From contig CAZXCB010000001.1 in NCBI GenBank assembly GCA_964639075.1, positions 9,602 to 73,601 of the forward strand: DNA of 64,000 bases. The letters are read 5' to 3'. The notes below the pieces were generated by a model. That model worked only from the letters and a program-made list of their open reading frames with translations, did not search any database and was not told the origin of the DNA. The stretch's first letter is position 1; the number at the start of each line of letters is the position of its first letter. This stretch comes from an uncultured Bifidobacteriaceae bacterium (GTDB lineage: Bacteria; Actinomycetota; Acidimicrobiia; IMCC26256; JAENVU01). This document shows positions 3,789-61,753 of this stretch, piece after piece. The translations under genes were made by a program, and so were the position numbers.

Positions 3789-5450
3789 GTGAGACGCAGG
3801 TCCAGACGGGGTATCCGCCGCGCGCTCGACGTGCGGGACTACCGGCTGCTCCTCGCGGCGTCGACGGCCTCCCAGACCGGCGACTGGCTCTACAACGTCG
3901 CGCTCGTGGCGTGGGCGTACGAGGTCACCCGCTCCGCCGGCTGGGTCGCGGTCATCACGATCGTCCGGCTCGCGCCGTACCCGGTCTTCGGCCCCCTCGG
4001 CGGGCTGCTCGCCGACACGTTCGACCGCCGCCGGGTGCTCATCGTCTCCGACGTGCTGCGCGGTGGACTCGTCGCCGCGCTCGCGGTGGTCGCCGCATCC
4101 GACGGTCCGGTGGGCCTCGCCGTCGCGCTCGCCGGGGCCGCCGCGGTCGCGGGCACCGCGTACCGCTCGGCCGTGGTCGGCATGCTGCCCGACATCGTCG
4201 GGGAACGCAGCCTCGCGGCGGCGAACGCGCTCGAGAGCATGGTCGAGAGCGTCACCGTCGTGGTCGGCCCCATGGTCGGCGTCGCCCTGCTCGTCGCCGG
4301 GAGCCCTGCTCTCGCCTTCGCGGTGAACGCGGTGACCTTCTTCGCCTCCGCCATCGGGGCGGTCGCGATGCGGACGCGCAGCCGCGGCTCCGCCGCGGAC
4401 CAGGCGGCGGACGCACACTGGATCGGCCGGCTCGGCCGCGGCTTCCACGAGCTCGCGTCCGCGCGCGACGCCCGCGTGGTCGCAGCCTTCCTGCTCGGCA
4501 CGTCGTTCGTCTACGGCGCACAGTCCGTGATGCTCGTGCTCATCGCGAGCGAACACCTGCGCGCCGGTCCGGACGGAGTCGGCGTCCTCTACGCGGCGCT
4601 CGGCGTCGGGGGCCTGCTCGGCGCGGTCGGGGTCACGCCTCTGGCCCGCTCGCCGAGGGTCGGCGCGGCCATGCTCGTCGCATTGGCGGTGAACGCCGTG
4701 CCGATGGCCGCAGTCGTCGGGACCCGCGACGCGGCCAGCGCGTTCGCGCTGGTGCTCGTGAGCGGCATCGGGATGGTCGTGGTCAGCGTCTTGAGCCTCA
4801 CCCAGCTCCAACGCTCCTTGCCCGGATCCGTCCTCGGCCGCGTCTGGGGCGCGCTCGACGCCCTGACCGTGCTCGTGATGATCGTCGGCTCGCTGGTGGT
4901 AGGGCCGACGGTCGCCACGATCGGTCGGGACGGTGCGTTCGTGGCGCTCATGGTCGCGGTGCCGACACTGGGACTCGCCGGTCTCGGCCGGCTGCTCCAC
5001 GCCGACCGCGAAGCGGTCGCGCTGCTCGCCCGCATCGGCGGGATCCTCGCACTGCTCGAGCAGCTGCCGATCTTCGAGCACGCCGACCGTTCGGTCCTCG
5101 AACGCCTCGCCCTCTCGGCCACCGTCACCGAGCTCCCGATCGGTGCCGATGCCATCGTCCAGGGCGAGCCCGCGACCCACTTCTTCGTGATCCAGCACGG
5201 GCGCCTCGACGTCCTTCGCACCGACGGCGCCCTCACCCGCAAGATCGCCGTGCTCGGTGCAGGCGACTGGTTCGGCGAGATCGGCCTCCTCCACGACGTG
5301 CCACGCAACGCGACCGTCCGGGCCCGATGGCCGTCGGTCGTCTGGACCATCGAGGGGGCCGAGCTGCTCGACGCCGTGAGCGCGGCGCCGACGGTGTCGG
5401 CACGGTTGCTGGAGGGGGTGGCGACCCGCCTCGGCGCGGCCGAGCACTGA
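3789..5450 (+). CDS. MFS transporter fused to a C-terminal cyclic-nucleotide-binding domain
   Basis: ORF 3789..5450 (GTG start). About 12 TM helices, then a cNMP-binding fold (IVQGEPATHFFVIQHGRLDV...GDWFGEIGLL...RNATVRA). Confidence 0.85.
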   Translation: MRRRSRRGIRRALDVRDYRLLLAASTASQTGDWLYNVALVAWAYEVTRSAGWVAVITIVRLAPYPVFGPLGGLLADTFDRRRVLIVSDVLRGGLVAALAVVAASDGPVGLAVALAGAAAVAGTAYRSAVVGMLPDIVGERSLAAANALESMVESVTVVVGPMVGVALLVAGSPALAFAVNAVTFFASAIGAVAMRTRSRGSAADQAADAHWIGRLGRGFHELASARDARVVAAFLLGTSFVYGAQSVMLVLIASEHLRAGPDGVGVLYAALGVGGLLGAVGVTPLARSPRVGAAMLVALAVNAVPMAAVVGTRDAASAFALVLVSGIGMVVVSVLSLTQLQRSLPGSVLGRVWGALDALTVLVMIVGSLVVGPTVATIGRDGAFVALMVAVPTLGLAGLGRLLHADREAVALLARIGGILALLEQLPIFEHADRSVLERLALSATVTELPIGADAIVQGEPATHFFVIQHGRLDVLRTDGALTRKIAVLGAGDWFGEIGLLHDVPRNATVRARWPSVVWTIEGAELLDAVSAAPTVSARLLEGVATRLGAAEH

Positions 5451-56237: not shown

Positions 56238-56726
56238 TCAGTCGTGCGCGTTCGAGCCGTGGTCCATGAGCTGGGCGTCGAACCAGTCGTGGAGCGCGGC
56301 GACCAGGTCGGCGTCGTCGGTGCGGTACGTGATCCGGGCGCCGCGTGGGATCGTCGAATACCGGACCTGCACCCGCGGCGCGCCACGCCGCAGCGCGGCG
56401 AGGCCGGGCATCCGCATGCCGTGGATCGCCATCGGATCCGTGAAGTCCCCGGCCGCGAAGCGCGTCGCCTCCTTCCGGAGGTGCTCCCGGACGAGGCGGA
56501 GCTGGTGTCGGTCCGTCGGATCCTTCACGACCACTCGCTGCACCCCACCGGTGGAGGTCCGGTGGAAGACGTGCGTCGTCTTCGCCTGGTCGAAGGGCAT
56601 CACCGCGGCGCCGCGCGCTTCGACCTCGTCCTGGCGGGTGGTCGTCGCGTCCGAGCCCTGCCCGCAGGCGGACACCAGGGCGAGGAGCGGCGCGACCGCG
56701 AGCAGCCAGGGCGTCCGTGGTCTCAT
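56238..56726 (-). CDS. Lipoprotein, unknown function (His-containing, possible metal-related)
   Basis: ORF 56238..56798. ATG at 56724-56726 gives MRPRTPWLLAVAPLLALVSA/C (lipobox). Conserved-looking blocks GDFTDPMAIHGMRMPGL and HDWFDAQLMDHG. Confidence 0.7.
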   Translation of the reverse strand: MRPRTPWLLAVAPLLALVSACGQGSDATTTRQDEVEARGAAVMPFDQAKTTHVFHRTSTGGVQRVVVKDPTDRHQLRLVREHLRKEATRFAAGDFTDPMAIHGMRMPGLAALRRGAPRVQVRYSTIPRGARITYRTDDADLVAALHDWFDAQLMDHGSNAHD

Positions 56727-56769: not shown

Positions 56770-57168
56770 TCATGCGACGGTCTCCGAGACTGCGCCACCG
56801 AGCGCAGCGAGTGCCGCGGTGAGTCGGTCGGCGGCTTCGGCTGCGAGCCGGGTGAACGCGGGGTCGGTGATCAGCTCGCGGGGGTCGATGACCGCGACGT
56901 GGGTCCCGGAGCCATCGGGCTCGAGCACGACGTTGCACGGCAGCAGCAGCGCGACCGACGGGTCGATCTCCAGGGCCTCCTGGGCGAACGCCGGGCTGCA
57001 GGCTCCCAGGATCTTGAGCGGGGTGCGGTCGACGCCCAGCGCCGCATGCAGGTTCGCGGCGACGTCGATCTCGCTCACGACCCCGAAGCCTTCGGTCGCG
57101 AGCGCAACCCGTGTCGCCGCCTCCACCTCGTCCATCGGGCGGTCGACCGTGGTCTGAATGCTGTGCAT
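56770..57168 (-). CDS. DUF302-domain protein
   Basis: Last 132 codons of ORF 56770..59481. ATG at 57166-57168 is preceded by GAGGAG. Sequence VALATEGFGVVSEIDVAANL...PLKILGACSPAFA...LLLPCNVVL. Confidence 0.85.
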   Translation of the reverse strand: MHSIQTTVDRPMDEVEAATRVALATEGFGVVSEIDVAANLHAALGVDRTPLKILGACSPAFAQEALEIDPSVALLLPCNVVLEPDGSGTHVAVIDPRELITDPAFTRLAAEAADRLTAALAALGGAVSETVA

Positions 57169-57229
57169 CGTGGCGCTCCTCGTCGTGATCGGTCGCCCCT
57201 CGGTTTGCCCGGGCTCGATGCCGGGAACA

Positions 57230-57245
57230 ATACCCCATGGGGTAT
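57230..57245. promoter_or_regulatory. Perfect 16-bp palindrome ATACCCCATGGGGTAT (CsoR/RicR-type operator candidate)
   Basis: Read directly, in the DUF302/MMPL divergent region. Overlaps a minus-strand TATTGT (-10-like, 57227-57232). Confidence 0.6.
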
Positions 57246-57262
57246 GGTTCCCTCCAGTCGCT

Positions 57263-57278
57263 ATACCCCATAGGGTAT
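57263..57278. promoter_or_regulatory. Second operator copy ATACCCCATAGGGTAT (arms ATACCC/GGGTAT)
   Basis: Read directly, 33 bp centre-to-centre from the first copy. Overlaps a plus-strand TAGGGT (-10-like, 57271-57276), 25 nt before the MMPL ATG. Confidence 0.6.
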
Positions 57279-57300
57279 CCACCTCGATCTGGGAGCCACG

Positions 57301-59484
57301 ATGCAGACCACACCACGACCCGCTGCGCCCGCACCGGCCGAGCTTCACCAGCCGTCGGCGCCGCCGGATCCGAAGGCGCTGTTCTCCCGGCTCGCGGCCG
57401 CGATGGCCCGCCATCGCCGCGCCGTCATCGTGGTCTGGCTGCTCGTCTCCTTCGTGGCCGCACCGCTCGCGCTGACCCTCACGGGAGCCCTCTCGGGAGC
57501 CGGGTGGGAAGCGCAGGGGTCGACGGCTCAGCAGGTGCGCGACGAGCTGCGGCGGGACTTCCCTGCGCTCGGCGCGGAGAACCCGGTCGTCGTCTACTCC
57601 CAGCGCGCGCCGATCGCCTCCGACCCGACCGGACTCCGGACGTTGGTCGATGCGCTCGCCGACGCGCCCCGCGCGCGGTCGGTCGCCGATCCCCTCGCGC
57701 TGCCCGCCGACGCCGGCCTCATCGCTCGCGACGGCCGCACCGCGATCGTCCCGGTGGAGCTCGCCGTCGGTGCCGACGCGACGAGGCCGACCGCGGCGGG
57801 CACGCTCGGCGACTACGTCGCCGGGCTCGCGCTCGCACCGGGCGCGCAGGCCGAGGTCACCGGTGAGTGGCCGGTGTGGAGCGACTTCAACACGGTGAAC
57901 GAGGAGGCGCTGCACAAGGCCGAGCTCCTGAGCGGCCTCCCGACGCTCGTCCTGTTGTTCCTCGCGTTCGGCTCGTTGATCGCGGCGGGCATCCCCCTCC
58001 TGCTCGCGCTCGCCGGGATCGCGGTCGGGTTCGCCGCGCTCCATCTCCTGAGCCTGGTCACACCGCTGTCGGTGTGGTCGATGAACTTCTCGATGATGAT
58101 CGGGCTCGCTGTCGGCATCGACTACAGCCTGTTCATCGTCAGCCGCTACCGTGAGGAACGCGTCGAGGGCAAGGATGCGATCGCGGCGATCGAGAACACC
58201 CTGTCGACCGCGGGCAAGGCCGTGTTCCTCTCGGCCCTCACGGTGGTGCTCGCGTTGTCCGCCGTGTTCCTCGTGCCCATCATGGTGTTCCGTTCGATGG
58301 CGCTCGGGATGATCCTCTCGGTCCTGGCCGTGGCCCTCGCGTCGCTCACGCTCCTCCCCGCGGTGCTCGTCGCACTCGGCGACCGGGTGCTCGTGACCCG
58401 CGGCAAGCAGGATCCCGACATCGTCGCCGAGAGCCGCTGGGCGCGGTGGACGAGCATCTCGCTGCGCCGTCCGGGGACCGTCCTCGCGATCGGGCTGCTG
58501 CTCCTCGGCCTGCTCGTCCTCCCCGCGGTCGGGATGCATCTCGGGATGCCCGGCGCCCGCGTCGTCGACCGGGGTCGCACGAGCCGCGACGGCTACGAGC
58601 TCCTCGTGAAGTCGTTCGGACCCGGCGCGGCCGCGCCCGCGTTCGTGACGGTACCGGCCACGGACGCTGCTGCGGTCGTGCGCATCGCCGCCTCGGATCC
58701 GGCCGTCGTCGACGCCCGGGTCGTGAGTCGCCCCGCGGCGAACGGGAGGACGGTCGTGCGGGTCATCGGGTCGACCGCGGTCGACGACTCGCACACCGCC
58801 GCGCTCGTGCACCGCCTGCGCGACCGGTTGGATCGTGCCGTGCCCGCCGCTCGCGTCGGTGGACCCGCCGCGCAGAACGCCGACCTGACGTCGGTGCTCA
58901 CCGGGCGCGCGCCGGTCGCGATCGGCGTGATCCTGCTCATGGCCTTCGTGTTGCTGCTCGTCGTGTTCCGCAGTCTCGCGATCGCCGTCGCGTCGATCCT
59001 CATGAACCTCGTGACCGTGGGCGCGGCGTTCGGCTTCGCGACCCTCGTGTTCCAGCGGGGTGTCGGCACGGGCCTGCTCGGCATCGAGCATCAGGGATTC
59101 GTCGACGCCTGGGCGCCGCTGTTCTTCTTCGCGCTGCTGTTCGGGCTCTCGATGGACTACCAGCTGTTCCTGCTGGCGGCGATCCGCGAGCGCTACGAGG
59201 CGACCGGCGACACGAAGCAGGCCATCCGCGAGGGCATCGCCCGGACCGGCCGACCCATCACCAACGCGGCGCTCATCATGATCGTGGTGTTCATCGCGTT
59301 CGGCGTCACCGGTCCGATCCCACCGACGGAGCTCGGCCTCACCCTGGCCGTGGCCGTGCTGCTCGACGCGACCGTCGTCCGCGTGCTGCTCGTCCCGGCG
59401 ACGATGGCCCTGCTCGGCGAGCGCAACTGGTACCTGCCGAGGTGGCTCGGCCGGATCCTCCCCGTGGTGAGGTTCAGCCACTGA
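57301..59484 (+). CDS. MMPL-family (RND superfamily) transporter
   Basis: ORF 57301..59484. ATG is preceded by GGGAG. Two 6-TM bundles, each with a periplasmic loop. MNFSMMIGLAVGIDYSLFIVSRYREE and FGLSMDYQLFLLAAIRERY motifs. Confidence 0.9.
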   Translation: MQTTPRPAAPAPAELHQPSAPPDPKALFSRLAAAMARHRRAVIVVWLLVSFVAAPLALTLTGALSGAGWEAQGSTAQQVRDELRRDFPALGAENPVVVYSQRAPIASDPTGLRTLVDALADAPRARSVADPLALPADAGLIARDGRTAIVPVELAVGADATRPTAAGTLGDYVAGLALAPGAQAEVTGEWPVWSDFNTVNEEALHKAELLSGLPTLVLLFLAFGSLIAAGIPLLLALAGIAVGFAALHLLSLVTPLSVWSMNFSMMIGLAVGIDYSLFIVSRYREERVEGKDAIAAIENTLSTAGKAVFLSALTVVLALSAVFLVPIMVFRSMALGMILSVLAVALASLTLLPAVLVALGDRVLVTRGKQDPDIVAESRWARWTSISLRRPGTVLAIGLLLLGLLVLPAVGMHLGMPGARVVDRGRTSRDGYELLVKSFGPGAAAPAFVTVPATDAAAVVRIAASDPAVVDARVVSRPAANGRTVVRVIGSTAVDDSHTAALVHRLRDRLDRAVPAARVGGPAAQNADLTSVLTGRAPVAIGVILLMAFVLLLVVFRSLAIAVASILMNLVTVGAAFGFATLVFQRGVGTGLLGIEHQGFVDAWAPLFFFALLFGLSMDYQLFLLAAIRERYEATGDTKQAIREGIARTGRPITNAALIMIVVFIAFGVTGPIPPTELGLTLAVAVLLDATVVRVLLVPATMALLGERNWYLPRWLGRILPVVRFSH

Positions 59485-59556
59485 CGTCCGAGGGACGTTC
59501 GGCCCTGGTCGGCACCCGACCCCAGATACGACAGTGCGTAGGAGGAGGTGTTGGAG

Positions 59557-59799
59557 ATGATGTGGAACAACGGTTGGGGCGGCGGTGAGTGGGTCGCGAT
59601 GTCGATCATGATGGTGGCGTTCTGGAGCATCGTGGTCGTCGCCATCGTGCTGCTCGTGCGAGCAACGAGGTCCGACTCACACCCCTCGCCGACGCCCACG
59701 GGTGCCGATGCTCGGAGGATCCTCGACGAGCGGTTCGCCCGCGGCGAGATCGAAGCGGAGGAGTACACCCGACGGCGAGATCTTCTCGGTCGGTCGTAG
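59557..59799 (+). CDS. SHOCT-domain small membrane protein
   Basis: Within ORF 59548..59799. ATG at 59557 lies 8 nt after GGAGGAGG. One TM helix, then the SHOCT motif ARRILDERFARGEIEAEEYTRRRDLL. Confidence 0.75.
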   Translation: MMWNNGWGGGEWVAMSIMMVAFWSIVVVAIVLLVRATRSDSHPSPTPTGADARRILDERFARGEIEAEEYTRRRDLLGRS

Positions 59800-59803
59800 C
59801 ACC

Positions 59804-60334
59804 GTGCGTTCGCGGAACGTCACGATCGTCGCGGTCGGGTTCGTGGTGGTGCTCGCCGCACTCTCGACGGTCGTCATCGGGGGGTTCGCGAGCGGTTTCG
59901 CGCGTTCCGATTGCGCACCGCGGCGCGTGTCCGGGACGGGTGTTCGGGTGGCGTTGATGGATGCCGGCGGCTCGATGATGGGGCGGGTGCAGGGCGGGAC
60001 CATGCGCCTGGCCGCGGACCGCAGCCGCGTGGAGCAGGGTCTCGTCACGTTCGTCGCGGCGAACGTCGGATCGATCGGCCACGAGCTGCTAGTGCTTCGA
60101 CTGCCTCGCCGACAGATCGTCGGGACGAGGCCGATCGGAGCCGACGGCGCGGTGGACGAGCGGGGCGATGTCGGCGAGGCCTCGAACGACTGCGCGCGCG
60201 GGACCGGCGACGGCATACCGCCCGGCCGCGCGAGCTGGACGAGCCTGCAACTCCGGCGCGGGAGCTACGAGCTGCTCTGCAACCTCCCCGGCCACTACGC
60301 GGCCGGCATGTACACCCGGTTGACCGTCACGTAG
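59804..60334 (+). CDS. Membrane-anchored cupredoxin-like (type-1 copper site) protein
   Basis: In frame within ORF 59702..60334. GTG at 59804 lies 4 nt after the SHOCT stop. N-terminal TM helix. Ligand pattern is H (GHELLV) ... C-x2-P-G-H-x4-M (CNLPGHYAAGM). Confidence 0.7.
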   Translation: MRSRNVTIVAVGFVVVLAALSTVVIGGFASGFARSDCAPRRVSGTGVRVALMDAGGSMMGRVQGGTMRLAADRSRVEQGLVTFVAANVGSIGHELLVLRLPRRQIVGTRPIGADGAVDERGDVGEASNDCARGTGDGIPPGRASWTSLQLRRGSYELLCNLPGHYAAGMYTRLTVT

Positions 60335-60361: not shown

Positions 60362-61285
60362 CTATGCGGGGCAGCGTCCGAGCACCGCGATCAGCTGGAC
60401 CGCCGAGGCGACCGAGAGCCCGAGCATCGCGGCCAGACCCGTCATGGCGATTGCGGAGTAGACGAGCCGGGAACGAGCGAGACCGCTGGGAGCGGTCGAG
60501 CGGCGCCGCCCGAGCCGGTCGAGGCGTCGTTGGATCGCCCGCTTCGTGGGGGTCGTCCCGTCGATCGCACCGATGCGTGCCAGCGCCGACCGGAGACCGG
60601 CCACTCGATCTCGGGAGCCGGCGGTGCTGACCTCGTCCGCCCAGTGCTCGATCGCGTCCCGCAACGCCCGCGTGCTGGCCCGCACCGCCGGGATCCAGCC
60701 GAGCACCCGGTCGACGGCCGCGGCGATGACGAGGTAGTGCCGATGGCGGAGCCGATGGTGCGCCATCTCGTGACGGATCACGGCATGCACCTCGGCGTCG
60801 TCCAGGTTGGACACGAGCCCTTCGGAGAGGACGATCTGGGGTGCGTCACCGGAGACGGCGACCGCGAGCAGGCGCGTGCTCGGCACGATGACGACGTCGA
60901 ACTCCGCGACCTGGCGGTGGTTGCCGATGAACGCGTCGACCCGAGCGTTGCGGAGACCTCGGATCGCGAGCGCCACCGCGCCCGCCAAACGGGCGGCGAC
61001 GACCGCGGCCACGATCAGGACCGCCGCCGCGAGGTAGACGCCGCCGAGGGGCAGGGCATGGACCGCGTCGTCGCAGAAGCCGGTGAGACCCGACCCGTCC
61101 GCGACGTGCAACACCGCCGGCGCACCCCAGAGGACGAGTCCGGTCACGACGAGCGCCAGCCCCAACGCCAGGGAGTTGCGACACGACCGGGCCCATTGCG
61201 CGACGGTCAGTCCGCTCGGTGCGGAGGACATGGCGCCCGGGAGGACGAGGAACAGCAGACCGAGACCGATGAGGGCGAGGGTCAT
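60362..61285 (-). CDS. M56-family (BlaR1-like) membrane metalloprotease without a penicillin-sensor domain
   Basis: Last 307 codons of ORF 60362..61714. ATG at 61283-61285 overlaps the BlaI stop (ATGA). TM helices and the zinc motif VIRHEMAHHRLRH. Confidence 0.8.
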   Translation of the reverse strand: MTLALIGLGLLFLVLPGAMSSAPSGLTVAQWARSCRNSLALGLALVVTGLVLWGAPAVLHVADGSGLTGFCDDAVHALPLGGVYLAAAVLIVAAVVAARLAGAVALAIRGLRNARVDAFIGNHRQVAEFDVVIVPSTRLLAVAVSGDAPQIVLSEGLVSNLDDAEVHAVIRHEMAHHRLRHRHYLVIAAAVDRVLGWIPAVRASTRALRDAIEHWADEVSTAGSRDRVAGLRSALARIGAIDGTTPTKRAIQRRLDRLGRRRSTAPSGLARSRLVYSAIAMTGLAAMLGLSVASAVQLIAVLGRCPA

Positions 61286-61662
61286 GCGCGCCGCGGCCTT
61301 CGCGTGAGCGCGCGACGCAGCTCCGCTCGCGTCTCCGGATCGATCGACTCGACGAAGTGCACGAGCGCGGAACGCGAATCGCCCGCGGCGGCGAGCAGCG
61401 CCGACATGCGTTCGGCGGCGTACTCCGATCGAGTCGCGAACGGGTGGTACTCGAACGCGCGTCCCCGACGGCGCCGGTCGAGCCGGCCCTTCTCCCACAG
61501 CCGGGACATCGTCGTCATGACCGTCGTGTACGCAAGCGTGCGACGACGGCCGACCGCTTCGTGCACCTCGCCCGGTGTCAGCCAGCCGTCCTGGTCCCAC
61601 AGCACGTCGAGGACCATCGCCTCGAGCTCCCCACGACCGAGGGGGCGGCGCTTCGCTGCCAT
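61282..61662 (-). CDS. blaI: BlaI/MecI/CopY-family transcriptional repressor
   Basis: ORF 61282..61716, ATG at 61660-61662. Winged helix sequence LGRGELEAMVLDVLWDQDGWLTPGEVHEAVGRRRTLAYTTVMTTMSRLWEKG. No C-terminal CxC metal motif. Confidence 0.85.
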   Translation of the reverse strand: MAAKRRPLGRGELEAMVLDVLWDQDGWLTPGEVHEAVGRRRTLAYTTVMTTMSRLWEKGRLDRRRRGRAFEYHPFATRSEYAAERMSALLAAAGDSRSALVHFVESIDPETRAELRRALTRRPRRA

Positions 61663-61714
61663 CCGTGCATCGTCGCGGCCGCGCCGCCGCGCCGCAAGCA
61701 CCGCCGACTTGCAC

Positions 61715-61753
61715 AACGGTTGTGCTACGACCTAACGTCGTAGCACAACCGTT
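61715..61753. promoter_or_regulatory. Perfect 39-bp inverted repeat (17-bp arms, 5-bp spacer) containing TACGAC-N5-GTCGTA; candidate BlaI operator
   Basis: AACGGTTGTGCTACGAC-CTAAC-GTCGTAGCACAACCGTT read directly. Lies between the blaI start (61662, -) and the NlpC/P60 start (61843, +). Confidence 0.65.

Follow-up and report, generated by a model that had tools for sequence, protein, structure and literature searches.

The 64,000-nucleotide stretch of the actinobacterial contig CAZXCB010000001.1 analyzed here (the window) carries two G-tract dyads between divergently oriented genes for a DUF302 protein and an MMPL-family transporter. Both dyads are probably operators of an actinobacterial CsoR-family repressor of the x-C-x-C type (ScCsoR or "CstR-like", cluster 3 in the sequence similarity network, SSN), which would sense sulfane sulfur or persulfides. 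Both are ATACC-N6-GGTAT sites (N6 sites), and as a pair they are conserved predicted operators of a CsoR-family repressor. An earlier sequence-only reading of this DNA had assigned the dyads to copper-responsive CsoR/RicR-type regulators. The family assignment stands, but the copper assignment is disfavored by the missing ligand histidine in most motif-linked regulators, by sulfur-related gene neighbors, by C-G-C regulators in orthologous loci, and by the match to the binding site of ScCsoR. The type of switch is already known, and the locus in the window is an ordinary new example of it; what is modestly new is that DUF302-lipoprotein and MMPL units can be placed in this regulon, both in Acidimicrobiia and in a number of other actinobacteria, and that the sulfur and copper branches part by N6 or N7 spacing in the sampled data.

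The twin dyads and their conservation

The DUF302/MMPL intergenic region spans 132 bp (57169-57300) in a window with a G+C content of about 71% throughout. Site 1 (ATACCCCATGGGGTAT, 57230-57245) is DUF302-proximal and lies roughly in the middle of this region; it is a perfect palindrome, with 0 mismatches between the two strands. Site 2 (ATACCCCATAGGGTAT, 57263-57278) is MMPL-proximal and is one central mismatch away from a perfect palindrome, and the start-to-start distance between the two sites is 33 bp. Reading the sequence confirmed the coordinates, the spacing, and the perfect 16-bp palindrome of the first site as they had been described. Both sites fit ATACC-N6-GGTAT at 10/10 specified positions, and they are the sole positions in the window to match it at 9/10 or more. 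When up to 3 mismatches were allowed, the 16-mer gave four strand-matches in the 64-kb window, corresponding to these two sites, against an expectation of 0.04, and 0 of 100 shuffled sequences equaled this number. Likewise, the looser pattern TACCC-N(2-8)-GGGTA occurs twice, against 0.01 expected. Site 1 is also embedded in an extended 30-bp imperfect palindrome (GGGAACAATACCCCATGGGGTATGGTTCCC, 57223-57252) that is 93% complementary, and TACCCCATGGGGTA and TACCCCATAGGGTA display the features of "type 2" operators of the CsoR family, as defined previously (PMC3902906).

Orthologous loci were reached by protein homology to DUF302 and without use of the motif, and the homologs came mostly from metagenome-assembled genomes (MAGs) of Acidimicrobiia. 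Every orthologous locus examined (L121-L131) has site 1 5' of DUF302, and those in which MMPL is the divergent gene all retain a partner site at a distance of 33-35 bp (33 bp in L121 and L129, 35 bp in L126). Locus L121 (82% identity in DUF302) has divergent MMPL and DUF302 genes with ATACCCGAAGGGGTAT and ATACCCCCCGGGGTAT 33 bp apart, a C-G-C regulator gene 5.6 kb away with ATACCGACTGGGGTAT upstream of it, and ATACCCTAGGGGGTAT upstream of genes for thioredoxin and a rhodanese/MBL protein resembling persulfide dioxygenase (PDO). Loci L129/L130 (70%) retain the DUF302-lipoprotein unit divergent from MMPL with twin sites 33 bp apart, together with an AhpD-like gene divergent from a C-G-C regulator gene, upstream of which lies ATACCCCATGGGGTAC, a 9/10 N6 site. 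Site 1 is unchanged in L124 (91%), where it lies at a contig edge, and its GGAACA...TGTTCC flanks are kept in L124, L121, L126, and L127, but not in L129. Locus L127 is without MMPL and has one 9/10 N6 site 5' of DUF302; a further N6 site, this one perfect, and a TauE gene lie nearby, and no regulator was detected at this locus. In L131, the motif is found upstream of the regulator gene, near which a TauE gene also lies. Overall, an autoregulated C-G-C regulator is encoded nearby in two of the three twin-site lineages (L121 and L129). Across the orthologs, the ATACC and GGTAT arms are unchanged or one position off, while the six central bases vary, which is the pattern of a dyad recognized by a protein.

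Some symmetry extends beyond the dyads. The translation-start regions of DUF302 (57159-57174) and MMPL (57295-57310) mirror one another (GGAGC(G)CCACGATGCA, 88% complementary), such that the 132-bp region is roughly symmetric about site 1, and these start contexts are also kept in L121, L124, and L129.

Spacing, ligand signatures, and gene neighborhoods

The N6 motif (ATACCCCNNGGGGTAT) was surveyed in a collection of one genome per species and was found at 120 or more loci, about 80% of them in Actinomycetota. As a contrast and positive control, a 17-mer with one additional central base (ATACCCCNNNGGGGTAT, N7) was surveyed in metagenome contigs, again with at least 120 loci. The counts given below are among the 120 loci listed for each motif, and they are lower bounds because the two collections differ, the lists hold a part of the loci, and each locus is a fixed 8-kb block.

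Fifty open reading frames (ORFs) of the CsoR family (PF02583) were found in 48 of the 120 N6 loci (about 40%), many of them less than 200 bp from the motif. Together with the TAC...GTA/G-tract architecture of the sites (PMC3902906), this placement bears out the view that the dyads are CsoR-family operators. In an alignment to M. tuberculosis CsoR, the X-Y-Z positions of these regulators read CGC in 29 cases, CAC in 8, CSC in 6, CNC in 1, and CRC in 1, versus CHC in a single case; that is, 45 of the 50 are x-C-x-C proteins without the Cu(I)-ligand histidine. The sole CHC protein next to the N6 16-mer belongs to a Kiritimatiellaeota MAG (L082). By contrast, 57 of the 120 N7 loci contain a CsoR-family gene, with 44 CHC, 5 CHH, and 1 CHD signatures versus 7 of the C-x-C type without histidine. 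The ratio of C-x-C to C-H-C or C-H-H signatures is thus 45/1 for N6 versus 7/49 for N7 (Fisher p = 2.8e-20). The accompanying transporters differ as well: a P1B (copper-type) ATPase was found in 1 of 120 N6 loci (L082), versus CPx/Cu-type ATPases in 17 of 120 N7 loci. In the sampled data, N6 versus N7 spacing divides the sulfur and copper branches very cleanly.

The genes around the N6 motif were identified by clustering the ORFs within 2.5 kb that passed a filter on third-position G+C content (GC3), with Pfam applied to the cluster representatives. The most frequent neighbors were proteins with Lactamase_B and Rhodanese domains (persulfide dioxygenase-rhodanese; 57 of the 120 loci), CsoR-family proteins (31), and TauE (15), followed by SQR-like flavoproteins (9), DUF302 (5), and MMPL (4). 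At least one PDO-rhodanese, CsoR-family, TauE, or SQR-like gene lies within 2.5 kb of the motif in 75 of the 120 loci, and tblastn over the whole 8-kb loci detected DUF302 in 10. Clusters of a csoR-like gene with DUF302, in some cases also with MMPL, carry the motif in Nocardia (L036, L091), Mycobacterium gastri (L083), Mycolicibacterium, and Geodermatophilus, and further in Arthrobacter, Isoptericola, Georgenia, and Tersicoccus. In L036, L055, L091, L100, L121, L126, and L129, MMPL genes related to that of the window are preceded by the motif, adjoin a C-x-C regulator, or both.

Multi-site arrays are common in the listed N6 loci, with spacings of 21-26, 32-38, and 41-42 bp, and the 33-bp pair of the window is therefore typical for this motif. 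Triple arrays also occur (L006, 513-555; L103, 5102-5144; L115, 3086-3128; L109, 6031-6099), with a period of exactly 21 bp in Arthrobacter and Tersicoccus or 34 bp in Mycolicibacterium, which suggests higher-order, helically phased repressor assemblies.

Among characterized systems, the closest parallel comes from Streptomyces coelicolor. ScCsoR has Cys37 and Cys66 and no ligand histidine, its 16-bp site was defined by electrophoretic mobility shift assay (EMSA) as ATACCn6GGTAT, and it represses pdo-tauE, rhod, and its own gene; at the pdo promoter it has two sites, bsI and bsII at -48 and -9, and it is released by polysulfide via Cys37/Cys66 (Lu et al., 2020, PMC7533328). The resemblance includes the 16-bp ATACC-N6-GGTAT site, two sites per promoter region, probable regulators with two cysteines and no histidine that are autoregulated in orthologous loci, and the sharing of the motif with PDO, rhodanese, and TauE promoters of other Actinomycetota. 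By contrast, the sites in the window are 33 bp apart and would serve two divergent promoters, whereas the pdo sites are 39 bp apart; moreover, the targets are DUF302-lipoprotein and MMPL-SHOCT units in an Acidimicrobiia-like MAG lineage instead of pdo, rhod, and tauE. ScCsoR and Rv1766 fall within a 3,175-member actinomycete cluster of x-C-x-C proteins that are candidate persulfide (RSSH) sensors (Fakhoury et al., 2021, PMC8643695). The CstR proteins of S. aureus, E. faecalis, and S. mitis (PMC8643695) are similar in being x-C-x-C persulfide sensors that act at a G-tract dyad and are not released by Cu(I). They differ in that they have a "wedge" Asn and fall into SSN clusters 4 and 10, both of Firmicutes, whereas the regulators discussed here are C-G-C proteins that resemble cluster 3. 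The S. mitis cst core operator (ATACCCTTATGGGGTAT) is N7, unlike the N6 sites of the window, and the spacing is therefore no family-wide rule. Both CsoR and CstR bind as two tetramers per operator.

On the copper side, the Streptomyces Cu(I)-CsoR consensus (ATATACCCCTNAGGGGTATAT) corresponds to TAC-N9-GTA, or ATACC-N7-GGTAT (Tan et al., 2014, PMC3902906). The S. lividans operator shares with the dyads a TAC/GTA inverted repeat, G-tracts, and A/T-rich outer flanks, and its CsoR binds with a 2:1 tetramer:DNA stoichiometry (PMC3902906). It nevertheless has TAC-N9-GTA where the window has TAC-N8-GTA, and its regulator is C-H-C with a regulon of copZA and csoR. RicR of M. tuberculosis (Festa 2011; Shi 2014, PMC3944814) matches the dyads in the 14-nt length of its TACCC-N4-GGGTA core, and its site has been cited as similar to that of ScCsoR (PMC7533328). 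It represses several dispersed promoters (lpqS, mymT, mmcO, socAB, and Rv2963) in a regulon confined to pathogenic mycobacteria (PMC3944814). However, RicR is a C-H-C Cu(I) sensor, and no member of the RicR regulon was found in the window. Set against the published CsoR/RicR motifs, the dyads thus agree with the ScCsoR site and with the spacing of the ricR core, but not with the Streptomyces Cu(I)-CsoR consensus.

A link between CsoR-family genes and DUF302 has also been seen in gene content. The "SUL" modules of Arthrobacter plasmids contain a sulfur dioxygenase, a CsoR-family regulator, rhodaneses, TauE, and DUF302 (PMC6305408), and DUF302 is present in sox clusters (PMC5037610). Our loci resemble the "SUL" modules and the Rv1766-type pairs of csoR-like and DUF302 genes in this linkage of a CsoR-family gene to DUF302, sulfur dioxygenase, rhodanese, and TauE, with the N6 motif upstream in M. 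gastri, Nocardia, Arthrobacter, Geodermatophilus, and others. Those modules are known from their genes alone, and they differ from the window, where DUF302 is uncoupled from a regulator gene and is divergent from MMPL.

The probable regulator and its signal

No CsoR-family gene was found in the window by tblastn with CsoR sequences of M. tuberculosis, B. subtilis, and S. lividans, nor with the L121 regulator or a profile built from the 50 CsoR-family hits, and the regulator is therefore not local. A search with the L121 regulator identified P0139, an NCBI singleton of the C-G-C type (...RDCREIV...SAGLTWC...) that is 89% identical to the query and is carried by a contig of 86,566 bp. A contig of that same size carries two further NCBI singletons, P0001 and P0241, whose sequences match the DUF302 protein and the lipoprotein of the window, respectively, at 100% identity. 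Judging from the shared figure of 86,566 bp, P0139 appears to be encoded in the ~22 kb of the source contig beyond the window. It would then speak against the absence of any CsoR-family protein from this genome, which had been raised as the case that would tell against CsoR-type operators; its C-G-C signature, however, is not that of a copper sensor of the C-H-C type. P0139 is just 36% identical to the Streptomyces regulator, and the effector is therefore assigned here by ligand signature, operator, and gene neighborhood.

By analogy with ScCsoR and CstR, we propose that tetramers of the reduced regulator, probably P0139, would occupy both sites and thereby block the core promoters from which the DUF302-lipoprotein unit and the divergent MMPL-SHOCT(-cupredoxin) unit are transcribed. 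A conserved TATTGT/TAnnnT hexamer overlaps site 1 at either end, and site 2 would be either the operator proximal to MMPL or a roadblock shortly past the MMPL start. A rise in persulfide or polysulfide would lead to persulfidation or cross-linking of the two conserved cysteines, the repressor would leave the DNA, and both units would be expressed.

Several observations weigh against this reading. The N6 and N7 surveys, with at least 120 loci each, drew on differing collections. The window itself contains neither the regulator gene nor a PDO, rhodanese, TauE, or SQR gene, and the sulfide/sulfite detoxification genes near the motif are those of relatives (thioredoxin and rhodanese/MBL in L121; TauE in L127 and L131). 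The placement of P0139 on the source contig depends on a contig size, the distance of P0139 from the Streptomyces regulator is considerable, and the promoter positions on which the occlusion model draws are deduced from conserved TAnnnT hexamers. The cupredoxin-like gene that follows MMPL-SHOCT and the His/Met-rich lipoprotein that follows DUF302 may hint at metal handling. Finally, the core of the ricR promoter in M. tuberculosis (TACCCCGCTGGGTA), the target of a C-H-C protein, is 14 nt long like that of the dyads, and in L082 a C-H-C CsoR gene and a P1B ATPase gene adjoin the identical 16-mer. With these two cases, the DNA sequence alone cannot fix the effector, and because RicR's own promoter is N6-like, N6 spacing alone is not decisive against copper.

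It is unlikely, though worth weighing, that the same x-C-x-C repressor and operators respond to another thiol-reactive signal, such as peroxide, disulfide stress, or electrophiles, as part of an envelope or redox response in the Acidimicrobiia clade. The low identity of P0139 to the Streptomyces regulator would fit such a divergence, and the most constant neighbors of the regulator in this clade are genes for an AhpD-like CMD protein and thioredoxin, not PDO. In addition, CstR reacts fast with H2O2 in vitro, and cluster-3 proteins are without the "wedge" Asn (PMC11672702). However, a rhodanese and an MBL (PDO-like) gene lie directly behind an N6 site in L121, and TauE lies near the regulator in L131 and near the N6 site of DUF302 in L127. 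Across Actinomycetota, PDO-rhodanese, TauE, and SQR genes dominate the motif loci, and DUF302 recurs in sulfur-oxidation clusters (PMC5037610, PMC6305408).

A copper-stress regulon, in which Cu(I)-sensing C-H-C repressors of the CsoR/RicR type would control DUF302-lipoprotein and MMPL-SHOCT-cupredoxin through the two dyads, we regard as improbable. G-tract dyads are common to Cu-CsoR operators, and in addition to the ricR core and L082, this explanation would account for the cupredoxin-like gene downstream of MMPL, for the cupredoxins near DUF302 in L129, and for the invariant His and Met residues of the lipoprotein. By contrast, the great majority of N6-linked regulators are without the copper-ligand histidine, the sole C-H-C protein lies outside Actinomycetota, and C-H-C regulators go with the N7 motif (p = 3e-20). 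Orthologous DUF302/MMPL loci contain autoregulated C-G-C regulators, and no P-type ATPase (DKTGT/CPx) or CopZ/HMA copper chaperone motif was found in the window. The description of the RicR regulon as confined to pathogenic mycobacteria (PMC3944814) also argues against it, as does the behavior of CstR-type proteins, which bind Cu(I) without leaving the DNA (PMC8643695).

Binding of the dyads by another local regulator, for instance a BlaI/CopY-family protein encoded 4 kb away (61282-61716), or their action as RNA hairpins in 5' leaders, is very improbable: palindromes can form hairpins if transcribed, and one promoter model places site 2 in the MMPL leader, but a palindrome of a different sequence lies directly upstream of the BlaI gene itself (GTTGTGCTACGAC-N5-GTCGTAGCACAAC), on which ground we rejected its product as the binder, the motif recurs at more than 100 loci without BlaI, the arms are constant or one position off around a variable center without compensatory arm changes, ScCsoR binds the ATACCn6GGTAT motif in vitro, an Rfam scan of 56900-57600 gave no match, and a terminator scan found no terminator-like T-run.

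With persulfide sensing as the preferred reading, a wider proposition may be offered tentatively: that in Actinomycetota one base pair of spacing parts the persulfide (N6) and copper (N7) CsoR regulons, and that the persulfide branch controls an undescribed envelope module, consisting of an MMPL/RND transporter, a two-Cys DUF302 protein, and a secreted His-rich lipoprotein, whose role would be the handling or export of sulfane sulfur or of envelope components modified by sulfur. For annotation, it follows that finding a "CsoR box" in front of a gene is not enough to infer copper regulation, an easy mis-annotation that is corrected here; two features readable from sequence split the branches in these data, namely whether the dyad is N6 or N7 and whether the ligand signature of the regulator is C-x-C or C-H-C. 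Three poorly understood proteins (DUF302, the MMPL transporter, and the lipoprotein, whose family has no name) are thereby placed in a predicted reactive-sulfur regulon of uncultured Acidimicrobiia and of several cultivable actinobacteria, among them Nocardia and Mycobacterium, and sulfide or polysulfide stress provides a concrete condition under which to study them.

Promoter architecture and flanking genes

The sequence-only reading had each site overlapping the -10 element of one divergent promoter, and this holds better for the first site than for the second. A candidate -10 for the DUF302 promoter, TATTGT on the minus strand (57227-57232), overlaps the outer 3 bp of site 1, and TATTGT or TATCGT occupies this position in the window, L124, L121, L126, and L127 (5/5). 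On the plus strand, TAGGGT (57271-57276), the -10 proposed earlier for MMPL, is present within site 2 but is not conserved: the matching positions in L121, L126, and L129 depart from TAnnnT. Another candidate in the MMPL direction, TATGGT (57243-57248, plus strand), overlaps the other end of site 1, and the corresponding position reads TAnnnT in L121 (TATTGT), L126 (TATTGT), and L129 (TATGCT). A sigma-70 consensus scan of the region returned no promoter, which is uninformative for an actinobacterium of 72% G+C. Two arrangements may be envisaged from these hexamers. In one, back-to-back -10 elements would flank site 1, and site 2 would then cover approximately +8 to +23 relative to the start of MMPL transcription; in the other, the symmetric scheme proposed originally, each promoter would have one proximal and one distal site, resembling the -9/-48 arrangement of ScCsoR. 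Conservation of the hexamers favors the former for the putative MMPL promoter.

The DUF302 gene (56770-57168, minus strand) encodes 132 amino acids and matches Pfam PF03625 (E = 1e-18) and the PDB structure 1j3m (TT1751; E = 4e-24). Two cysteines, C57 (GxC.P) and C78 (LPCN), are invariant in an alignment of homologs down to 43% identity. Its place in this predicted persulfide regulon, together with its occurrence in sox clusters, makes sulfur carriage or thiol redox chemistry a candidate function of DUF302. After a gap of 43 nt follows a gene for a lipoprotein of 162 amino acids with the lipobox LVSAC (56238-56726, minus strand), which is probably co-transcribed with DUF302. The lipoprotein matched no Pfam or NCBIfam family, and its orthologs lie 3' of DUF302 in L124 (79% identity) and L129 (65%). 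A parallel to the RicR-regulated lipoprotein gene lpqS had been drawn; it finds no support, with LpqS itself outside the comparison; the protein belongs to an uncharacterized family co-conserved with DUF302. We found 425 homologs (E <= 1e-5), the named ones mostly from Acidimicrobiia/Actinomycetota MAGs and sometimes mis-named "aspartate carbamoyltransferase". Their invariant residues are H52, H82, E86, H102, H146, W148, Q152, D155, H156, and M43-P44-F45. An AF2 model of the lipoprotein (pLDDT 91) consists of a duplicated unit of a helix and a beta-hairpin, and a Foldseek search with this model returned no PDB relative.

On the other side of the dyads, the MMPL-family RND transporter gene (57301-59484, plus strand) encodes 727 amino acids (Pfam PF03176, E = 2e-77). 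It is followed by a gene for a SHOCT-domain membrane protein (59548-59799, plus strand; Pfam SHOCT, E = 5e-6), which is probably part of the MMPL operon; the MMPL-SHOCT order is also found in L126. Five nucleotides past the SHOCT stop begins a gene for a membrane-anchored, cupredoxin-like protein (59804-60334, plus strand) with a type-1 copper motif, C..PGH....M (LLCNLPGHYAAGM), which has weak SoxE/Copper-bind matches as well as CopI/rusticyanin matches. From the packing of the genes, it may also belong to the MMPL operon. Blue-copper proteins recur near the module: L129 has a Cupredoxin_1 gene (4277-4663) on the downstream side of DUF302, a few genes away.

Another recurrent neighbor of the module is a gene for an LPG_synthase_TM (lysyl-phosphatidylglycerol synthase/flippase-like) membrane protein, found in L121 (6576-7667), L126 (1133-2182), and L127 (2919-3929); in L127 it takes the place of MMPL divergent from DUF302. 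This recurrence hints at an action of the module on envelope lipids.

Further downstream in the window, the BlaI/CopY-family gene (61282-61716, minus strand) overlaps an M56/M48 peptidase gene (60362-61714). The palindrome just upstream of it, GTTGTGCTACGAC-CTAAC-GTCGTAGCACAAC (61718-61752), is unrelated to the TACCCC..GGGGTA dyads and looks like the repressor's own operator; its core, TACGAC-N5-GTCGTA, matches the mycobacterial BlaI box.

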